A DNA stretch of 32,000 bases, taken from positions 1 through 32,000 of the forward strand of contig CAMDOT010000041.1 in NCBI GenBank assembly GCA_945903635.1, in the 5' to 3' direction. Under the pieces are notes generated by a model that worked only from the letters and a program-made list of their open reading frames with translations, made no database searches and was not told the origin of the DNA. This stretch comes from Rhizobium sp. Q54. Its GTDB lineage: Bacteria; Pseudomonadota; Alphaproteobacteria; Reyranellales; Reyranellaceae. Of the stretch, positions 3,460 to 9,752 are shown piece by piece. Within the stretch, counting starts at the first letter, position 1. Each line of letters opens with the position of its first letter. Both the position numbers and the translations under genes were made by a program.

Positions 3460-3599
3460 CAGCGTAATGACCGATCCGGATGCGCGTGACCGCAGTGTCT
3501 GCGTCACAGGCGCCGCCCTGCGGGATGGGTGCGGCGATCGCCCGCAGCTTCACCATTCAGAGACCGGGCGATCTGACCGGTTTTGGCAACAACAGGGGG

Positions 3600-3893
3600 C
3601 CGCTTGATCAATCGGCCCGGCGCCTCCTGCACTTCGCCGCCCAGGGTGAGACGCACGATGCACGCCTTTGGATGCCAATTGCCGAAGCGACCCGTGCGGT
3701 AGGCAATACCTCCTGCCTCGTCGGTACTGCCGAGCAAGTCGCCTCCGCCCTGCTGGAATACTACAAGCTCGGGATCCACTCGTTCCTTATCCGCGGCTTC
3801 GATCCGTACAAGGACACGGTTGAATTCGGGCGCGAACTGATCCCTCGCTTAAGGGCAGGCGCCGTCGAGTTGGACCAGGCAAAGGCTGCTTGA
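3600..3893 (+). pseudogene. 5'-truncated fragment of an LLM-class (SsuD-like) flavin-dependent monooxygenase; only the C-terminal ~95 aa remain
   Basis: The tail of ORF 3480..3893 reads ...RLWMPIAEATRAVGNTSCLVGTAEQVASALLEYYKLGIHSFLIRGFDPYKDTVEFGRELIPRLR. This aligns by eye with the C-terminus of SsuD-type luciferase-like monooxygenases (...LWAGVG...[48 protein letters not shown]). The upstream ~270 aa of the barrel are absent, and the N-terminal 40 aa of the ORF look non-homologous. Confidence 0.6.
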
Positions 3894-3917
3894 CCGGCGC
3901 ACGTAAACGGACCGCGT

Positions 3918-4087
3918 TTCCCTGTTCGAGCCCGACGACTTCCCTGCTCCACCATGGATAATTCCCTGTTCTATCGGGCCGGGTTTACAGGCCCGGATCG
4001 GTCATAATGGCCATTTTGCTGGGATTTCACCGCTGTGAGCCGAGGGATAAGACCAAATTCCCTGTTATTTTCCCTGTTAGCAGGGAA
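3918..4087. repeat. Array of six TTCCCTG heptamers: three direct copies phased at exactly 22 bp, then two direct copies 12 bp apart merging into a perfect 7-4-7 palindrome
   Basis: TTCCCTG occurs at 3918, 3940, 3962 (each as TTCCCTGYTC), 4058 and 4070 (each as TTCCCTGTTA), with inverted CAGGGAA at 4081-4087. This gives TTCCCTGTTAGCAGGGAA at 4070-4087, flanked by AATT/GAATTC. The array lies in an AT-richer 258-bp gap between two convergent gene ends. Confidence 0.7.
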
Positions 4088-4151
4088 TTCGACCTGAGAC
4101 CGGTTCGCGGTCGACTGCGTCCACTACCAACCGCCTCCGGCCGTATGACGG

Positions 4152-5507
4152 CTATTGCTTGGCGATCTCCGGCAGGTCGAACTCCCGCCAGCCGGGGACT
4201 TCGGACACCTCCGGGAATTCGGCGCCAAACGGCTTGGTCGCATCGATGCCGACCGAGGAGGAGTAGCCGCCATTGGTGTAGGGATCGAGCGGCGCTGTCG
4301 CCGTGCGATCGACGATGAACACGTCCTCGCTCGGTTTGACGCGAAAGGATTGCGCCCACTCGACTTCGGCTGAGTTGCGGATGTCGATGTCGGGATCGAC
4401 CGCGATGACCCACTTGGGATGGAGGTTGCCGGCCATGGCGGCGAGGATCGCATGGCGTGCCTCGCCTTCGTAGCGCGGCTTCATGGCGATCACGACATAG
4501 ACCTGGACGCCGCCCGAGCTGTTGATGGAGACGTCGCTGATCGTCGGAAACTGGGCCTGGAGCTGGCGCAGGATCGAGCTCTCGAACGGGATCTGCTTCA
4601 GGACATGATTCTCGGTGATCGGCTTGCCGGTCAGCAGGCCCTGGAAGATCGCGCCTGTGCGGTGGGTGATGGCGGTGATCTTGGCGACCGGCTTGGGCGA
4701 GGCGGGCGTGTAGTAGCCGGTGTATTCGCCGAGCGGCCCCTCGACCTTCTGGTCGTTGGTGTCGACCGTGAATTCAATCACGATCTCGGCGAGCGCCGGC
4801 ACCTTCATGTCGTTGCTGATCGCCTTGGCGAGCTCGACGGGCGACCCCCGCAGGCCGCCCGCCACGAACCAGTCGTTGGTGGAATCGCTCGACTGCACCT
4901 GGCAGGAGTACATCGTCAATGGATCGACGCCGATCACTAGGGCGCCGTGGAGCTGCTTCCCCATCTGGGTGGCGTGCGCCATGTTCTTGCCGAAGCGATG
5001 GTTGGGGGCGGAGAAGACACCCAGCTCCTTCGGCCCGTGGACCTGGAAGCGGTAATTGCCGATGTCGGGAATGCCGGTTTCAGGATTTTCCGACACCACG
5101 ATGCCCGCGGTGATGTAGGGCCCGCCGTCCTTCGGACTGTAGATCGGCACCGGCAGCTTGGTGACGTCGATCGCATCGCCCGTCAGCACGACCTCCTGGC
5201 AGGGCGGCTTGCCCTTTAAGTCCACGGGCGCGATCGGGTTGTTGATGGCCTTGAGGACCTTCTCGTGGATCGTCTTCTCGGACGCTTCGAAGGCCATCAG
5301 CGCGAGCCTGCGGTTGCCGTAGACGCCGGCCACCAGCGGAAAATCCGTGCCGGTCTGTTTGAACATCAGGGCGGGGCCCTGCATCGAACTTGCCTTGGCC
5401 AGCGCCTTTGCGACATCGTATTTGAGGGCGACCGGCCGGTCGATATCGACGAGTTCGCCCGCATTCTTCAAGGCCGTCAGGAAGGCACGCAGATCTTGAT
5501 AGGGCAT
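4152..5507 (-). CDS. UbiD-family (prFMN-dependent) aromatic acid decarboxylase, short form (~451 aa)
   Basis: ORF 4152..5513; the track start is TTG 5513 and I prefer ATG 5507 (MPYQDLRAFLTALKNAGELVDIDRPV..., as in UbiD N-termini). UbiD hallmarks are present: IGNYRFQV, ALVIGVDP, EGPLGEYTGYY (compare EGPFGDHTGYY in E. coli UbiD), GIDATKP. Confidence 0.9.
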   Translation of the reverse strand: MPYQDLRAFLTALKNAGELVDIDRPVALKYDVAKALAKASSMQGPALMFKQTGTDFPLVAGVYGNRRLALMAFEASEKTIHEKVLKAINNPIAPVDLKGKPPCQEVVLTGDAIDVTKLPVPIYSPKDGGPYITAGIVVSENPETGIPDIGNYRFQVHGPKELGVFSAPNHRFGKNMAHATQMGKQLHGALVIGVDPLTMYSCQVQSSDSTNDWFVAGGLRGSPVELAKAISNDMKVPALAEIVIEFTVDTNDQKVEGPLGEYTGYYTPASPKPVAKITAITHRTGAIFQGLLTGKPITENHVLKQIPFESSILRQLQAQFPTISDVSINSSGGVQVYVVIAMKPRYEGEARHAILAAMAGNLHPKWVIAVDPDIDIRNSAEVEWAQSFRVKPSEDVFIVDRTATAPLDPYTNGGYSSSVGIDATKPFGAEFPEVSEVPGWREFDLPEIAKQ

Positions 5508-5542
5508 GTTCAATCCGTCCTTGCTTCTTCCGAGTACAATGC

Positions 5543-6574
5543 ATGATGCGTAGCTTGTTTGCCGACATCCATCGTCATGACATCGAGTCGGCCATTCGCG
5601 TTGCCGTGGCCGTCGGCCTGCCGTTGCTGGCGCTCGATGCCATCGGCCGCCTCGATCTCGCCGTCTATGCCGCGTTCGGCGGGCTGGCGATGCTCTACGG
5701 CCACAGCGAATCCGCGAAGCGACGCGTCGAAAGCCAGATCGTGGCGGGCGCCGGCCTGGTCGTCACGATCGCGGTGGCCATGGCTTACTCGGCCGCGCAG
5801 GCGCCGGTGGCCGTGCTGGGCGTCCTGCTTGCCGCCACCGTGATCGCTGCCGTCACGCTGGGGGCGGCCATGCGCTGGGTACCGCGCGGAGAAATGTTCT
5901 TCGTGCTGGTGCTGCTGATCATCGCCGATATCCCCACGAGTTGGGACCGCCTGCCGCTCGGCATCGCCGTCGGCGCCGGAGGTGCCGCCTTCTCCGTACT
6001 GCTCGCCGCGCTCAACCGCATCGGTGCGCCCCCGGACGAAGCGAAACGCGACGGATGGCATCGCCGCATGGTCTCGGGATATGCCGATCTCGACCGCCGG
6101 CAGCATCTGGTGCTGATCGTGGCCGCCACGCTCGGCGTCCTCACGGCCTGGTCGCTGGCCCTTGCCCTGGGCGTCGGCAATCCCTTCTGGGGCGCGGTCA
6201 CCGTCGCCGCACTGATGCCGGCGCTGGCCGCCGCCGACGTCTGGCGCCGCACGATTCACCTCATGCTGGGTACCTTGGGCGGTGTAGCCATCGCCACTTT
6301 CCTGTTCTCCTTCGATCCCGGCCATCTCGCGCTGATCGCGATCATCGTTGTCTGCCAAGCTGTCGCGGAGATCGCGGTGTCGCGCAACTACGGTGTCGCG
6401 CTGCTTTTCTTCTCGCCGCTCGCCATCGCCATGAGCAACCTGAGCCGCGGTGCGCCCTGGCAGCCGCTGCTGATCGACCGGCTGGCCGAGGCCGCCATCG
6501 GGACGGCGGTCGCCTTCATCGTGATCCTGGCCGGGCGCCGGATCCTCGCCCGGATCCGTGCGAAGATCGCTTAG
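5543..6574 (+). CDS. FUSC / aromatic-acid-exporter (ArAE)-like integral membrane protein
   Basis: 343-aa highly hydrophobic ORF of about 8-10 TM segments. The N-terminus IESAIRVAVAVGLPLLALDAIGRLDLAVYAAFGGLAMLYG and the later GNPFWGAVTVAALMP...R..HLMLGTLGGVAIA are typical of fusaric-acid-resistance / AaeB-like family cores. Confidence 0.65.
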   Translation: MMRSLFADIHRHDIESAIRVAVAVGLPLLALDAIGRLDLAVYAAFGGLAMLYGHSESAKRRVESQIVAGAGLVVTIAVAMAYSAAQAPVAVLGVLLAATVIAAVTLGAAMRWVPRGEMFFVLVLLIIADIPTSWDRLPLGIAVGAGGAAFSVLLAALNRIGAPPDEAKRDGWHRRMVSGYADLDRRQHLVLIVAATLGVLTAWSLALALGVGNPFWGAVTVAALMPALAAADVWRRTIHLMLGTLGGVAIATFLFSFDPGHLALIAIIVVCQAVAEIAVSRNYGVALLFFSPLAIAMSNLSRGAPWQPLLIDRLAEAAIGTAVAFIVILAGRRILARIRAKIA

Positions 6575-6598
6575 GTCTCCGCCACGCCGCATCGCCGT

Positions 6599-8227
6599 CT
6601 AATCTGTCGTCTTCATGTGCCGCGGGTCGGAGTGGTTAAGCCCCTGCGGCTTGGCTTCCCAGGCGAAGGGCTTGTCCGAGATGGTGTAGCGATACCACGG
6701 CGGATCGTTTGTCCGGCCGAGCTTGTGCCGAAGGTTGCCGAAGGCCCGGTAGAGAACCGGATAAGGCTGGCCGTGATAGTTCTTGAGGATCTCGTACCAG
6801 GCGCGCGGCTGGGCAGCGATGAACGCCTCCATGTCCTTCGTCAGCGCCTCCTCCGTCATCGCCTTCACGTTCGCCGGCGGATCGCCGAGATCGGTTACGG
6901 TGCTGCGCACGAACTCGTTGGGGTTCCAGTCCGGCCCGATCGGGACAGTGCAGTCCATGCCGATCTTGGACGAAATGCCGGGCACCGCGCTCGTGGGATC
7001 GACAGTCATGGTGTTGAGCCCGTCGAGCCGCACCGTGTCGCGGTCGGGCATGTAGCGATAGGCCATGGCGGCGAGGACGGCCTGGTCGTCCCAGATGTCG
7101 ACATCGGTGTCGAAGACCATGGCGATCTTGGGCAGGCCCTGCTTGGAGCAGGTGAGCATGATGCCCAGCGCCTGCTTGGCGTCGCCACCGCCCAGCGGAT
7201 GGATCTTGGCGTAGGCGATGTTGGACAGGCCGCCCAGCGGGCAGCGCACCTCGCGCACGTCGATGCCGCCCTGCTTCAGCCCGTTGAACAGGTCGGCCTC
7301 GATCGCCGGCAGCTGCAGCATGTTGTCGGTATACCAGGGATGCAGGCCGCCGATGGTGCAATGCTGGAAGATCCCGCCCTTGCGGTAGGTCATCGCCTTA
7401 ACCTTGAGGCGATAATTGTGCTTGATGCCACCGCCGTACATGCCGGTGAACTCGCCGTACGGACCCTCGTCGAAGATGAGCCCTTCCTGCGCCATCAGCT
7501 CGCATTCGAGCACGATCTCGGCATTGGCCGGCACCATCACGTCGATGGTCTCGCATTTGATCATTTTCGCTGGCGCGCCGTAGAAGGCGCCCAGCACCTC
7601 GAAATCGTCAGTGTCGGAGGTGACGCCGGCCAACGCCGAGATCTTGTCGATGGTCGGCCCCCCGATGACGATCGCGACCTCGAGGTTCTGCCCCTTCGCC
7701 GCCGCCGCCATGGCGTGGATGCGCTGGCGGTGCGAGGTGCAGGTCATGTCGACCGACTTCTCGTTCTTCGAGCGGAACATCGAGCGGTAGATGCCCCAGT
7801 CGTAGACGCCGGTGTCGGGATGCTTGCTGATGAAGAGATTGTCGTTGGTGTAGGCGTGGCCGTCGCGGTCGTGATGCAGGAACAGCGGCAGGCGCGTGAG
7901 GTCGACGTCGTCGCCCTTCAGGATCACTTCCTTGCAGGGCGCCGTCGTCACCGTCTCCCACTTCACGCGACCCTTGGAGCGCGCGACCATCTCGAGGCCG
8001 GTCCGCGTCTTGTCGCAGCCCATGGCCCAGGCAAACATTTCCTGGTTCGAATAGGCGTTGGCCAGCACCGAGAACTCGGTGTCCTTGATCTTCTCGACCA
8101 GGACGGCCTTGGTCGGATTGTCTTCCATGAGCTTAGGGACCTGGTCGACGCGCACCTCTTCCTTGATGCGCACGAGGAAGCCCGCCTTGTCCATGGCGGC
8201 GACGAAATCCGAAAGCGACTGTTGCAT
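6599..8227 (-). CDS. UbiD-family (prFMN-dependent) decarboxylase, long divergent form (542 aa) with an unassigned C-terminal extension
   Basis: Colinear with UbiD proteins (WGIYRSMF, VAIVIGGP, DEGPYGEFTGMY, KIGMDCTVP) but only distantly similar to the 4152-5507 copy. About 111 aa follow the KIGMDCTVP segment, versus about 27 in the other copy. Confidence 0.85.
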   Translation of the reverse strand: MQQSLSDFVAAMDKAGFLVRIKEEVRVDQVPKLMEDNPTKAVLVEKIKDTEFSVLANAYSNQEMFAWAMGCDKTRTGLEMVARSKGRVKWETVTTAPCKEVILKGDDVDLTRLPLFLHHDRDGHAYTNDNLFISKHPDTGVYDWGIYRSMFRSKNEKSVDMTCTSHRQRIHAMAAAAKGQNLEVAIVIGGPTIDKISALAGVTSDTDDFEVLGAFYGAPAKMIKCETIDVMVPANAEIVLECELMAQEGLIFDEGPYGEFTGMYGGGIKHNYRLKVKAMTYRKGGIFQHCTIGGLHPWYTDNMLQLPAIEADLFNGLKQGGIDVREVRCPLGGLSNIAYAKIHPLGGGDAKQALGIMLTCSKQGLPKIAMVFDTDVDIWDDQAVLAAMAYRYMPDRDTVRLDGLNTMTVDPTSAVPGISSKIGMDCTVPIGPDWNPNEFVRSTVTDLGDPPANVKAMTEEALTKDMEAFIAAQPRAWYEILKNYHGQPYPVLYRAFGNLRHKLGRTNDPPWYRYTISDKPFAWEAKPQGLNHSDPRHMKTTD

Positions 8228-8255
8228 GGTCTGATCCCGCTGATGAAGAAACGCG

Positions 8256-8687
8256 TCAGGAGTAGGCGGGAGCGACCTTTCCTTTTTCCACGTAGCCTTT
8301 GAGGTGATGCATCATCATCCCCCATAGGCTGTTGCACTTGGCGAAGTTGCCTTCCTGATGCGGCCAGCCGGCATGGTCGAACGACAGATGCACGCGGCCG
8401 TGCGGCGTCTTGCCGAGATTGAAGGTGACGGTCGTACCCTTGGACTCGCCCGGACCTTCTACGCATTTCCACGCGATCTCGTGGTCGTCGTGTGCGGCGA
8501 TCTCCCAGATGAAGGTCGGGCCGTTCGGATATTTCAGCGACCACTTCGAACCGACACCACCGCCGCCCGATACCTCGGCCATGGTCCAGGCTTTCAATCC
8601 CTCGAGGGTGGTCAGGGCATTGTGAACCTTACCGTGATCGGCAGCGATGTTGACCGCATGACGCAAAGAATGATTTGGCACGGACAC
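8256..8687 (-). CDS. SRPBCC-superfamily (AHSA1/START-like) small ligand-binding protein
   Basis: 143-aa ORF 28 nt upstream of, and co-oriented with, the long UbiD gene. The pattern LRHAVNIAADHGKVHNALTTLEGLKAW...W.L......F.W.I......I.W.C... is typical of Activator-of-Hsp90-ATPase-homologue-1-like SRPBCC proteins. The track start is GTG 8687. A second GTG at 8681 sits 7 nt after AGGAGG and may be the true start. Confidence 0.7.
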   Translation of the reverse strand: MSVPNHSLRHAVNIAADHGKVHNALTTLEGLKAWTMAEVSGGGGVGSKWSLKYPNGPTFIWEIAAHDDHEIAWKCVEGPGESKGTTVTFNLGKTPHGRVHLSFDHAGWPHQEGNFAKCNSLWGMMMHHLKGYVEKGKVAPAYS

Positions 8688-8787
8688 GCCTCCTCCGAAT
8701 TATTCACGCTGGCCTGCTGATACGTACTGCAAGGCTACACTGGATCTGCAGACGACCATAGCCGTGCAGTGCAGAAACAAAAAGGGC

Positions 8788-9321
8788 CTAGCGCTTGCTC
8801 TTGGCGCGTTCGATGGCTTCGGAGATGAGGCGACGCGCCTCTTCGACATCGCCCCAGCCCTGCAGCTTCACCCACTTGCCGGGCTCGAGATCCTTGTAGT
8901 GGACGAAGAAGTGCTCGATCTGCTGGCGGGTGATCTCGGGCAGGTCGGTGATGGTCTTCACGTGGACGTAGCGCTGCGTCACCTTGGAGGACGGCACGGC
9001 GATGATCTTCTCGTCGCCGCCGCCGTCATCCTCCATGCGCAACACGCCGATCGGGCGCACGTTGATCACCGCGCCGGGAATGATCGGGCGCGTGTTGGCG
9101 ACCAGAACGTCGATCGGGTCGCCATCGTCGCTGAGCGTGTGCGGCACGAAGCCGTAATTGCCGGGATAGCGCATCGGCGTGTAGAGGAAGCGGTCGACGA
9201 CCAGCGTGCCCGCCGCCTTGTCCATCTCGTACTTGATCGGCTCGCCCCCGATCGCAACCTCGATGATGGTGTTCACGTCTTCAGGCGGCCGGTAGCCGAT
9301 GGCGATGGCATCGAGGTTCAT
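8788..9321 (-). CDS. ppa: Inorganic pyrophosphatase (family I)
   Basis: Unmistakable family I PPase text: [80 protein letters not shown] 9321 (MNLDAIAIG...) gives the canonical ~177 aa; the track start at 9354 adds 11 aa. Confidence 0.97.
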
Positions 9322-9412
9322 GGCGCGATCCTGACGGATAGGCTGCAAAATCACAAAAGAAACCGGCGGTCCTGAGTACGGACGCGAGCGAGCCCTTGCC
9401 GGGAAGCCCGGG

Positions 9413-9483
9413 TGTCACACTAAAAAGTGTCACACCAAGTTGAGACAAATGTTGTGACACAGGTTGAGCGCCCACCTGTGACA
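9413..9483. promoter_or_regulatory. Cluster of four TGTCACA/TGTGACA heptamers (two in each orientation) upstream of ppa; candidate operator sites
   Basis: GTGTCACAC occurs at 9412-9420 and 9427-9435 (direct, 15 bp apart). The reverse-complement form TGTGACA occurs at 9453-9459 and 9477-9483. The cluster sits 92-162 nt upstream of the ppa ATG, in the AT-richest part of the intergenic region. Confidence 0.3.
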
Positions 9484-9752
9484 TCGTCGGGAATCTGACC
9501 CTGTGGCTCCACCTCGGGCAGCCACAGATGACCGTCTAATCAACACTCGGACGCGTTTTTTGCGCCTCGGTCCACCCACCTGCCGGACAGTCAATGCGGC
9601 GGGGATGGCCTTGTGCTTGCTACTCACGGCTCAGCACCGGATACCCGGTACAGGTCGCGGGGCGGCCCCTCATCCTCCAGGGATCTTACCCGGCGGGCGC
9701 GCCGGGCGGGGCATGGCCAATGGTTCGTGGTGGCAGAACGCCACCGGCCACG

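Follow-up and report, generated by a model that had tools for sequence, protein, structure and literature searches.

A putative two-part UbiD decarboxylase system with an SRPBCC partner protein, and a copy of it that has lost ubiX

Introduction

Enzymes of the UbiD family, which work with prenylated flavin mononucleotide (prFMN), are wanted for reversible C-H carboxylation, and many of them cannot be activated outside their host. In the closest described systems, VdcBCD, LpdBCD and PhdABC, a UbiD decarboxylase is encoded with the flavin prenyltransferase UbiX and a small, non-decarboxylase accessory protein; the accessories aid cofactor loading or maturation or stabilise the enzyme, and they can be dispensable (PMC10865409, PMC13040415). 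Among the small helpers that handle prFMN are the chaperone LpdD (PMC10865409) and the maturase PhdC (PMC13040415), and recent work indicates that such helpers decide whether UbiD enzymes work. Here, we analyze a cluster of four genes in the first 32,000 nucleotides of contig CAMDOT010000041.1 of Rhizobium sp. Q54 (assembly GCA_945903635.1), a stretch that is called the window below. The cluster encodes a short and a long UbiD-family protein, named here UbiDs and UbiDL, a half-size FUSC_2 (fusaric-acid-resistance-like) membrane protein and an SRPBCC/AHSA1 helix-grip protein. Like the systems named above, the module to which these genes belong combines UbiD, UbiX and a small accessory, and the SRPBCC protein is a candidate for a helper with a new fold.

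The region is probably a lineage-specific copy, without ubiX, of a conserved prFMN decarboxylase system that consists of two sub-modules, the parts of which work separately. New in this work are the ubiX deletion shared with the closest relative together with the selection that continued after it, the two-sub-module structure, and the genome-wide absence of UbiDs or of the SRPBCC protein in some carriers, as well as an Asp/His/Asp site at the metal-ligand positions, the predicted fold of the UbiDL C-terminal tail with its deeper homology and a corrected phylogenetic placement of both UbiD proteins.

Results

A scan with one genome per species over ~185,000 species representatives revealed a relative of UbiDL in 128 of these genomes. 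The best 80 loci were examined, with gene calls made by a simple procedure of open reading frames (ORFs) and tblastn; judged from them, the source of the window is Reyranella-like, and the closest locus, L010, is 96% identical. Co-occurrence was counted in the 71 related loci with at least 3 kb of flanking sequence on either side of UbiDL, where an SRPBCC gene is found near UbiDL in 68, ubiX in 61, a UbiDs orthologue in 59 and FUSC_2 in 34. The four genes, whose UbiD-FUSC-UbiD-SRPBCC arrangement was pointed out in an earlier note made from the sequence of this DNA alone, form a real unit. The note had proposed that they may be a module of two decarboxylases and an exporter-like protein; a conserved functional unit is borne out, but FUSC_2 is not tied to the pair of UbiD genes, as it goes with UbiDs only, and in Alphaproteobacteria only.

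The SRPBCC gene stands directly upstream of UbiDL in 74 of the 77 loci with at least 500 bp of upstream sequence (~96%), in several phyla, and wherever gene coordinates were extracted it is the immediate upstream neighbor, which upholds the proposal that its product is a dedicated partner of the long UbiD. Homologues of UbiDL with 64-93% identity occur in Alphaproteobacteria, Mycolicibacterium, Planctomycetota, Binatia, Pseudofrancisella and one Parachlamydiaceae metagenome-assembled genome (MAG), and the alignments of the best 120 listed extend over 99-100% of the query and take in its tail. UbiDs orthologues are 76-94% identical in Alphaproteobacteria and 50-55% identical in the loci of Actinomycetota, Planctomycetota and Binatia. 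In the latter three groups the order is UbiDs-SRPBCC-UbiDL, with gaps of 8-60 bp, mostly ~10-30 bp, and ubiX is as a rule found upstream, in most of the loci on the other strand. Most Reyranella loci have the order SRPBCC-UbiDL-UbiX-(CopC-like gene), followed by the divergent FUSC/UbiDs pair, and in Ancylobacter and Xanthobacteraceae this pair is found on the other side of the SRPBCC-UbiDL unit. In Alphaproteobacteria, FUSC_2 and UbiDs are always either both present or both absent, and the spacer between their start codons measures 29-38 bp in 34 of 34 alphaproteobacterial loci, its sequence being kept within Reyranella. Two sub-modules are distinguished on these grounds: a core, sub-module A, made of SRPBCC and UbiDL and normally followed by ubiX, and sub-module B, made of UbiDs, which in Alphaproteobacteria is always divergently paired with FUSC_2.

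The earlier note had remarked that no UbiX is encoded nearby. This is correct for the window, since a whole-genome search found a single ubiX, on another contig, C56 (249.6 bits versus a cut-off of 108.9), but it is not a property of the system, as 61 of the 71 related loci have ubiX beside the module. In Reyranella massiliensis, UbiDL is followed by ~1 kb with genes for a flavin prenyltransferase and a small CopC-like protein, and in other Reyranella loci a ubiX gene (~200-207 amino acids [aa]) directly follows UbiDL. In the window, the ubiX/CopC-like stretch is down to 24 bp, and L010 carries the identical junction sequence, indicating one deletion of ubiX and the CopC-like gene in an ancestor shared by both. 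The absence of ubiX here is a recent, lineage-specific loss. In comparison with L010, which shares the deletion, all four genes show a ratio of nonsynonymous to synonymous substitution rates (dN/dS) of 0.07-0.15, at dS values of 0.27-0.69; purifying selection thus went on after the loss of ubiX, and the cluster has been maintained. In most Reyranella relatives, ubiX and a gene for a CopC-like protein of ~144 aa with a signal peptide lie between UbiDL and FUSC_2 (L013:8530-9637).

These values bear on the possibility that the cluster is a decaying, non-functional remnant. Such a reading would draw on the deletion of ubiX and the copC-like gene and on the position of the cluster beside two truncated genes; a luciferase-like monooxygenase stump adjoins UbiDs, and synteny stops on this side, as orthologues of the stump, of an amidohydrolase-2 gene and of two TctC genes on the far side of UbiDs are found neither in L010 nor in the other related loci. 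However, all four reading frames are intact, dN/dS is 0.07-0.15 with respect to L010 (dS ~0.3-0.7) and another ubiX is present in the genome, so that we consider decay very improbable.

The ubiX gene on C56, which shares 54% identity with the cluster-type UbiX, lies ~4.4 kb from a gene that looks COQ9-like by eye and from rpsU (C56, 5058-5687 and 10100-10666), a neighborhood suggesting that it is probably the housekeeping copy, and prFMN would be supplied to the cluster in trans by this gene. A 624-aa multi-pass membrane protein is encoded after ubiX on this contig.

The two UbiD copies are 29% identical, consistent with the distant relationship claimed for them in the earlier note. On the generic NCBIfam model TIGR00148 (cut-off 244.85), UbiDs passes with 302.6 bits and UbiDL stays just under with 237.5, and neither protein reaches the equivalog cut-off of the UbiD, VdcC, PpcA/B, MqnL and BagN models; on the housekeeping UbiD model NF008175 the two scores are 205.7 and 119.9 bits versus a cut-off of 788. 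The genome holds three UbiD genes, namely UbiDs, UbiDL and a canonical copy on contig C227. The latter has Asn/His/Glu at the metal-ligand positions and Asp290, in agreement with the view that neither copy in the window is the housekeeping ubiquinone enzyme.

Both motifs, EGPLGEYTGYY in UbiDs and EGPYGEFTGMY in UbiDL, keep the Glu to which the note had drawn attention. In the alignment, this second Glu stands at the place of Asp290 of E. coli UbiD, and judging by the Fdc1 motif it is probably the counterpart of Fdc1 Glu282. The catalytic triad is Arg155/Glu258/Glu263 in UbiDs and Arg148/Glu254/Glu259 in UbiDL, and Arg/Glu/Glu is invariant in 62 UbiDs sequences, 78 UbiDL sequences and 32 stand-alone relatives. 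The triad corresponds to the E(D)-R-E ionic network beside the cofactor that has been described for the UbiD family (PMC8988006). The metal-ligand positions are occupied by Asp150/His172/Asp214 in UbiDs and by Asp143/His166/Asp208 in UbiDL, and all members of the same three sets have Asp/His/Asp where E. coli UbiD has Asn175/His196/Glu241. In the Fdc1 and UbiD structures, Asn/His/Glu are the ligands of the Mn2+ that holds the phosphate of prFMN. These residues are kept in HmfF, E. coli UbiD and the C227 UbiD, and AnInD has the Asn and the Glu, its His column aligning uncleanly. Judging by the residues, Asp/His/Asp would represent a variant site, still plausible as metal ligands.

Trees were computed with FastTree on trimmed MAFFT alignments. 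With few outgroups, UbiDL and UbiDs appeared as sister clades (support 1.0), a grouping that was overturned by the addition of 41 cluster representatives; the idea of a single ancestral Asp/His/Asp clade duplicated inside the module was dropped after this broader tree. In it, UbiDL nests among long-tailed UbiD proteins of 518-564 aa (support 0.96-0.97), and UbiDs with its stand-alone relatives groups with short UbiD proteins (support 0.97). As the broader tree separates UbiDL and UbiDs, the Asp/His/Asp replacement probably arose at least twice, and it could mean that these enzymes prefer another metal or have adapted to a condition that they share.

Among solved structures, the best relatives of UbiDs are HmfF (6h6v, 245 bits) and AnInD (7p9q, 175 bits), and both also rank among the top matches of UbiDL. 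The AlphaFold2 (AF2) model of UbiDL, based on 110 homologues (predicted local distance difference test [pLDDT] 86, predicted template-modeling score [pTM] 0.87), matches HmfF and VdcC with a Foldseek E of 1e-33, and the fold alignment gives 24-26% identity of UbiDL to HmfF and AnInD. Since no solved structure matches either copy better than HmfF, and since the source names of homologues include "2,5-furandicarboxylate decarboxylase 1" in line with the JGI/KEGG-type annotation of many of them, both proteins might be taken for HmfF furan-2,5-dicarboxylate decarboxylases. We find this hardly credible: UbiDL is only 25-26% identical to HmfF, the site is Asn/His/Glu there versus Asp/His/Asp here, and the conserved neighborhoods contain no other hmf genes. 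Furthermore, Arg304 and Arg331 of HmfF, which reportedly bind the second carboxylate, are replaced by Phe and by Gln, Ser or Tyr in UbiDs, and by Ile, Leu or Val and by Ser in UbiDL.

The canonical UbiD on C227 is also relevant to the question of whether the module is an alternative isoprenoid-quinone decarboxylase, in which the SRPBCC protein would carry the polyprenylated intermediate in the manner of COQ10/START proteins. The module is indeed self-contained, with no conserved catabolic neighbors, SRPBCC is a lipid- and polyketide-binding fold, and UbiD and UbiX are by origin a quinone decarboxylase system. Nevertheless, the genome already has the C227 enzyme and a ubiX near a gene of COQ9-like appearance, and UbiDL is nearer to HmfF and VdcC than to UbiD or MqnL. 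The patchy distribution (128 of ~185,000 species), the ~70% identity between phyla and the transposases beside the operon in Planctomicrobium give the module the look of an accessory, transferable trait. The menaquinone route of Mycolicibacterium is not known to need a UbiD, which we also count against a role in quinone synthesis, an explanation that appears quite improbable to us.

The earlier note had also raised the possibility of an enzyme built from two UbiD-like subunits, as in phenylphosphate carboxylase. According to this explanation, UbiDs and UbiDL would be the alpha and beta subunits of one heteromeric (de)carboxylase, of the phenylphosphate carboxylase type or of the type proposed for benzene and naphthalene carboxylase, with the SRPBCC protein as a small third subunit. 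The two dissimilar UbiD genes are co-located in 59 of the 71 loci, they form a tight UbiDs-SRPBCC-UbiDL operon in Actinomycetota, Planctomycetota and Binatia, and the unusual Asp/His/Asp site is common to both proteins. Each UbiD nevertheless occurs without the other: five genomes with the SRPBCC-UbiDL pair have no UbiDs orthologue anywhere (best match 33-39% identical), and the UbiDs clade includes stand-alone enzymes (~60% identity) encoded beside molybdenum (Mo)-hydroxylase, Rieske, amidohydrolase-2 and TctC genes, in catabolic clusters of a heteroaromatic-acid type. The complete Arg-Glu-Glu in every sequence examined means that neither UbiD looks like a non-catalytic scaffold. In addition, the scores on the PpcA and PpcB models TIGR02723 and TIGR02724 are at most 131.8 versus 564.6 and 187 versus 468.95, UbiDs and UbiDL lie in separate transcription units in the window, and no HAD-type phosphatase-like subunit was seen in the scans of the window. 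Judging from gene content and residues, the two proteins probably do not form one enzyme, and we regard the heteromer as unlikely.

We then turn to the SRPBCC protein, whose AF2 model (pLDDT 92.6) has the standard helix-grip fold. Its nearest solved relative is 2m89 (template-modeling [TM] score 0.83, 89 bits), and in structure it is most similar to bacterial Aha1-type proteins and, after them, to DynU16, PYL receptors and PR-10 proteins. Across 50 orthologues, 19 residues are invariant, including six Trp, His10 and His105, and Cys75 and Cys118; an invariant Gly-Pro-Gly is followed by a nearly invariant Asp (residues 78-81). About half of the invariant residues are kept in 2m89. In three Mycolicibacterium genomes, UbiDs is directly followed by UbiDL and no SRPBCC orthologue is found anywhere in the genome, suggesting that the protein is an accessory rather than an essential catalytic subunit. 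By analogy with LpdD and PhdC, it may take part in cofactor handling, that is, in the hand-over or maturation of prFMN, to which we give somewhat less than an even chance; the binding of a hydrophobic substrate or product comes slightly behind, and other roles take the rest. No mention of UbiD together with SRPBCC or polyketide cyclase was found in the literature that was searched. A 392-aa fusion of AHSA1 with a PNPOx-like, FMN-binding domain in a Xanthobacteraceae locus (L005:12678-13856, minus strand) was considered as a link between SRPBCC proteins and flavin handling and was rejected, as it is by inspection of a different, ArsR-associated AHSA1 type, within an ArsR/MFS unit.

The C-terminal tail of UbiDL (6602-6865), which the earlier note could not place in any domain, is real, as homologues of 64-93% identity align through it, and it is not of low complexity. 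AF2 predicts its residues ~450-520 with a pLDDT of 95-98, as helices at 459-472, 477-483 and 489-502 followed by a short hairpin, and P474, W477, G486, Y489, F496, R500, L503, P510 and Y514 are invariant. Nothing was found under E 0.02 in Pfam, and profile searches against PDB sequences gave nothing significant, the only hints being winged-helix regions of RNase R and TFIIF (E 0.35-0.9); from its predicted topology only, the tail may be called winged-helix-like. Solved UbiD structures reach only the first 450-495 alignment columns of the UbiDL model.

In an all-against-library search the UbiDL clade is isolated, the next full-length relatives being 31-39% identical, with matches to approximately residue 500 of UbiDL. 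With hhalign, the tails of UbiDL matched those of the 31-39% identical long UbiD proteins with a probability of 96.9% and an E of 1.3e-10, which indicates that the tail is an old folded domain of a larger group of long UbiD proteins. A role of the tail as docking site for the SRPBCC protein was rejected, because it predates the partnership and distant long-tailed UbiD genes occur without an SRPBCC-family ORF: in 80 metagenome loci of such genes, neither this ORF nor another conserved small neighbor was found. In two of these metagenome loci (L115 and L116), the distant long-tailed UbiD gene is followed by a gene resembling, by eye, a molybdopterin subunit of the xanthine dehydrogenase type, and others have TctC receptor genes, or ubiX directly upstream. 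There are hints that the wider long-tailed clade acts on N-heteroaromatic acids.

The coordinates of the module in the window are given in Table 1. The four ORFs and their spacings agree with those in the earlier note, and its family assignments for all four proteins are upheld by Pfam. Both UbiD proteins are above the Pfam cut-offs for UbiD_N, UbiD and UbiD_C, with 199, 90.8 and 51 bits for the three domains of UbiDs and 173, 72.9 and 34.5 bits for those of UbiDL. FUSC_2 scores 73.2 bits on the 343-aa protein (cut-off 25.6, residues 202-327), for which there is no NCBIfam match, and AHSA1 scores 36.2 bits on the 143-aa protein (cut-off 22.1). UbiDs has an alternative start, a TTG at 5513, two codons upstream of the ATG, which would give 453 aa (4152-5513); the ATG is the likelier start codon. 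Scanning 3800-9700 for promoters and terminators gave nothing beyond chance. As noted earlier, no transcription factor adjoins the four genes according to Pfam scans of the window ORFs. In Pfam scans of the main ORFs of the window no small subunit of the BsdD/VdcD type was detected, with no dedicated model searched, and the window scans showed no membrane-fusion partner of the AaeA type.

Table 1. Features of the module in the window.
Feature	Position	Strand	Remarks
UbiDs, short UbiD-family decarboxylase	4152..5507	minus	451 aa from ATG at 5507 (MPYQDLRAF...)
UbiDs/FUSC_2 start-codon spacer	5508..5542		35 bp, divergent; holds AAGGACGG, ribosome-binding site of UbiDs
FUSC_2 (fusaric-acid-resistance-like) half-size membrane protein	5543..6574	plus	343 aa
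FUSC_2/UbiDL junction, deletion scar	6575..6598		24 bp, converging genes
UbiDL, long UbiD-family decarboxylase	6599..8227	minus	542 aa
UbiDL C-terminal tail, folded core (predicted)	6680..6853	minus	residues ~459-516, three helices and beta-hairpin
SRPBCC/AHSA1 helix-grip protein	8256..8687	minus	143 aa, 28 bp upstream of UbiDL

Beside UbiDs, the module is edged by a C-terminal luciferase-like monooxygenase stump (Pfam positions 257-313 only) and a repeat-bearing spacer (3480-4151). The genes ppa, MFS, TctC and amidohydrolase-2 and the luciferase stump were considered as members of the module and rejected, as they are not conserved across the related loci; ppa and the MFS gene are common to the window and L010, and a 44.5% identical homologue of the latter lies near the module in a Xanthobacteraceae locus (L037). 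The earlier note had seen in the Bug/TctC and amidohydrolase-2 neighbors a hint to the substrate. This does not hold, because flanking genes without orthologues in the related loci give no substrate information.

Several loci of relatives show peculiarities of their own. In an alphaproteobacterial MAG (L017:9551-10856), UbiDs is split in two frames (283 and 153 aa), which is either a frameshift or pseudogene or an error of sequencing. A gene for an Ala/Arg-rich protein of ~176 aa adjoins ubiX in loci of Actinomycetota, Chelatococcus and Binatia (L032, L033, L056, L059, L062, L064-L068, L072-L077, L080-L082, L085, L088 and L089; for example, L066:4484-5020); its product may be another accessory of the system. 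The window lacks this gene, and its sole match in this genome is a GC-rich frame on C56 that is probably spurious. In Planctomicrobium sp. SH661 (L071/L009), the UbiDs-SRPBCC-UbiDL operon lies beside two DDE transposase genes and a HamA/DEAD-helicase (Hachiman-type) defense pair, a setting that fits horizontal spread of the module. Among the carriers, we take Reyranella massiliensis, Parachlamydiaceae, Pseudofrancisella and Mycolicibacterium to belong to amoeba-associated or amoeba-resistant groups, and such an association might explain gene exchange between distant phyla.

Discussion

In the explanation that we consider probable, UbiDs and UbiDL would be active decarboxylases, each assembled separately, and not subunits of one enzyme. 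They would act, by decarboxylation or carboxylation, on small (hetero)aromatic carboxylates, which may be identical for both enzymes, related or successive, and FUSC_2 would carry the substrate or the product across the membrane. The SRPBCC protein would help UbiDL without being essential, either by handing over or maturing prFMN or by binding a hydrophobic substrate or product. The ubiX gene of the cluster was deleted in the ancestor shared with L010, and its function in cofactor supply would now be carried out by the gene on C56. The substrate class is a guess, based on the nearest characterized enzymes, HmfF and indole-3-carboxylate decarboxylase, and on the Mo-hydroxylase and TctC genes next to relatives.

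Several points weigh against this explanation. The heteroaromatic guess draws on the neighbors of distant relatives and on HmfF and InD, and not on the module's own neighbors, which are not conserved. A general prFMN helper would be expected beside UbiD genes of the UbiDs type or beside other long-tailed ones, where SRPBCC is not found; moreover, the SRPBCC gene is still beside UbiDL where ubiX is missing, which is as compatible with a role specific to the substrate or the enzyme as with one in cofactor handling. UbiDL may also form facultative complexes with UbiDs or with the SRPBCC protein. Finally, the assembly is 91% complete, in 384 contigs, and a second ubiX could be unassembled.

More speculatively, and with clearly less confidence than for the explanation above, the SRPBCC protein can be proposed as a fourth kind of UbiD accessory, after VdcD, LpdD and PhdC, specific to the UbiD clade with the Asp/His/Asp site and the winged-helix-like tail, where it may load or mature prFMN or channel a hydrophobic substrate. 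SRPBCC-UbiDL-UbiX, often with a second UbiD, might then serve, as a device spread by horizontal transfer, for the detoxification or catabolism of a natural (hetero)aromatic acid that is new to UbiD chemistry. Whatever the substrate, the labels "4-hydroxy-3-polyprenylbenzoate decarboxylase" and "2,5-furandicarboxylate decarboxylase" are probably wrong for these proteins. A module kept under selection after losing its own ubiX also suggests that cofactor supply can pass to a housekeeping gene.

The module can be compared with several known systems. As in PpcABCD, genes for a pair of dissimilar UbiD-family proteins lie near each other and are accompanied by those for small additional proteins; the scores stay below the equivalog cut-offs, however, the UbiD proteins of the module are independent and both look catalytically complete, and the hosts are aerobic soil and freshwater bacteria. 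HmfF/HmfG (6h6v) and AnInD (7p9q), whose substrates are heteroaromatic acids, have in common with the module the UbiD fold and the Arg-Glu-Glu triad, but they are a distant match with other residues at the metal site, and they lack the SRPBCC partner and the C-terminal tail.

The FUSC_2 gene resembles those of AaeB and FusC (FUSC, ArAE) in its FUSC-type domain and in its coupling to a gene for an enzyme of the aromatic-acid type. AaeB has ~650 aa; the FUSC_2 protein is half-size, with 343 aa, and unlike AaeB, it shows no cytoplasmic domains and no AaeA-type partner in the window. With the SRPBCC proteins of the Aha1/AHSA1 type (2m89 of Colwellia psychrerythraea, 3q63 and DynU16), the partner of UbiDL shares the helix-grip fold (TM 0.79-0.83). 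His10, Trp34, His105, Trp108, Cys118, Asn119 and Trp122 are found in 2m89 as well, whereas Trp49, Trp61, Cys75 and the Gly-Pro-Gly-Asp of residues 78-81 are not. The fixed place upstream of a UbiD gene is special to the clade of the partner, while 2m89 and 3q63 have no assigned function.

The systems that are closest in composition remain VdcBCD, LpdBCD and PhdABC. The model of VdcC/BsdC/LpdC, NF041204 (cut-off 650), gives 280.4 bits for UbiDs and 212.3 for UbiDL, and the fold of the accessory differs in each case, being a Zn-ribbon in VdcD, a Pba3/4-like chaperone in LpdD, an HpaC-like flavin reductase in PhdC and an SRPBCC/AHSA1 helix-grip protein here. Unlike these systems, the module usually includes a second UbiD and has the Asp/His/Asp metal site, and in the window ubiX is missing from the cluster.

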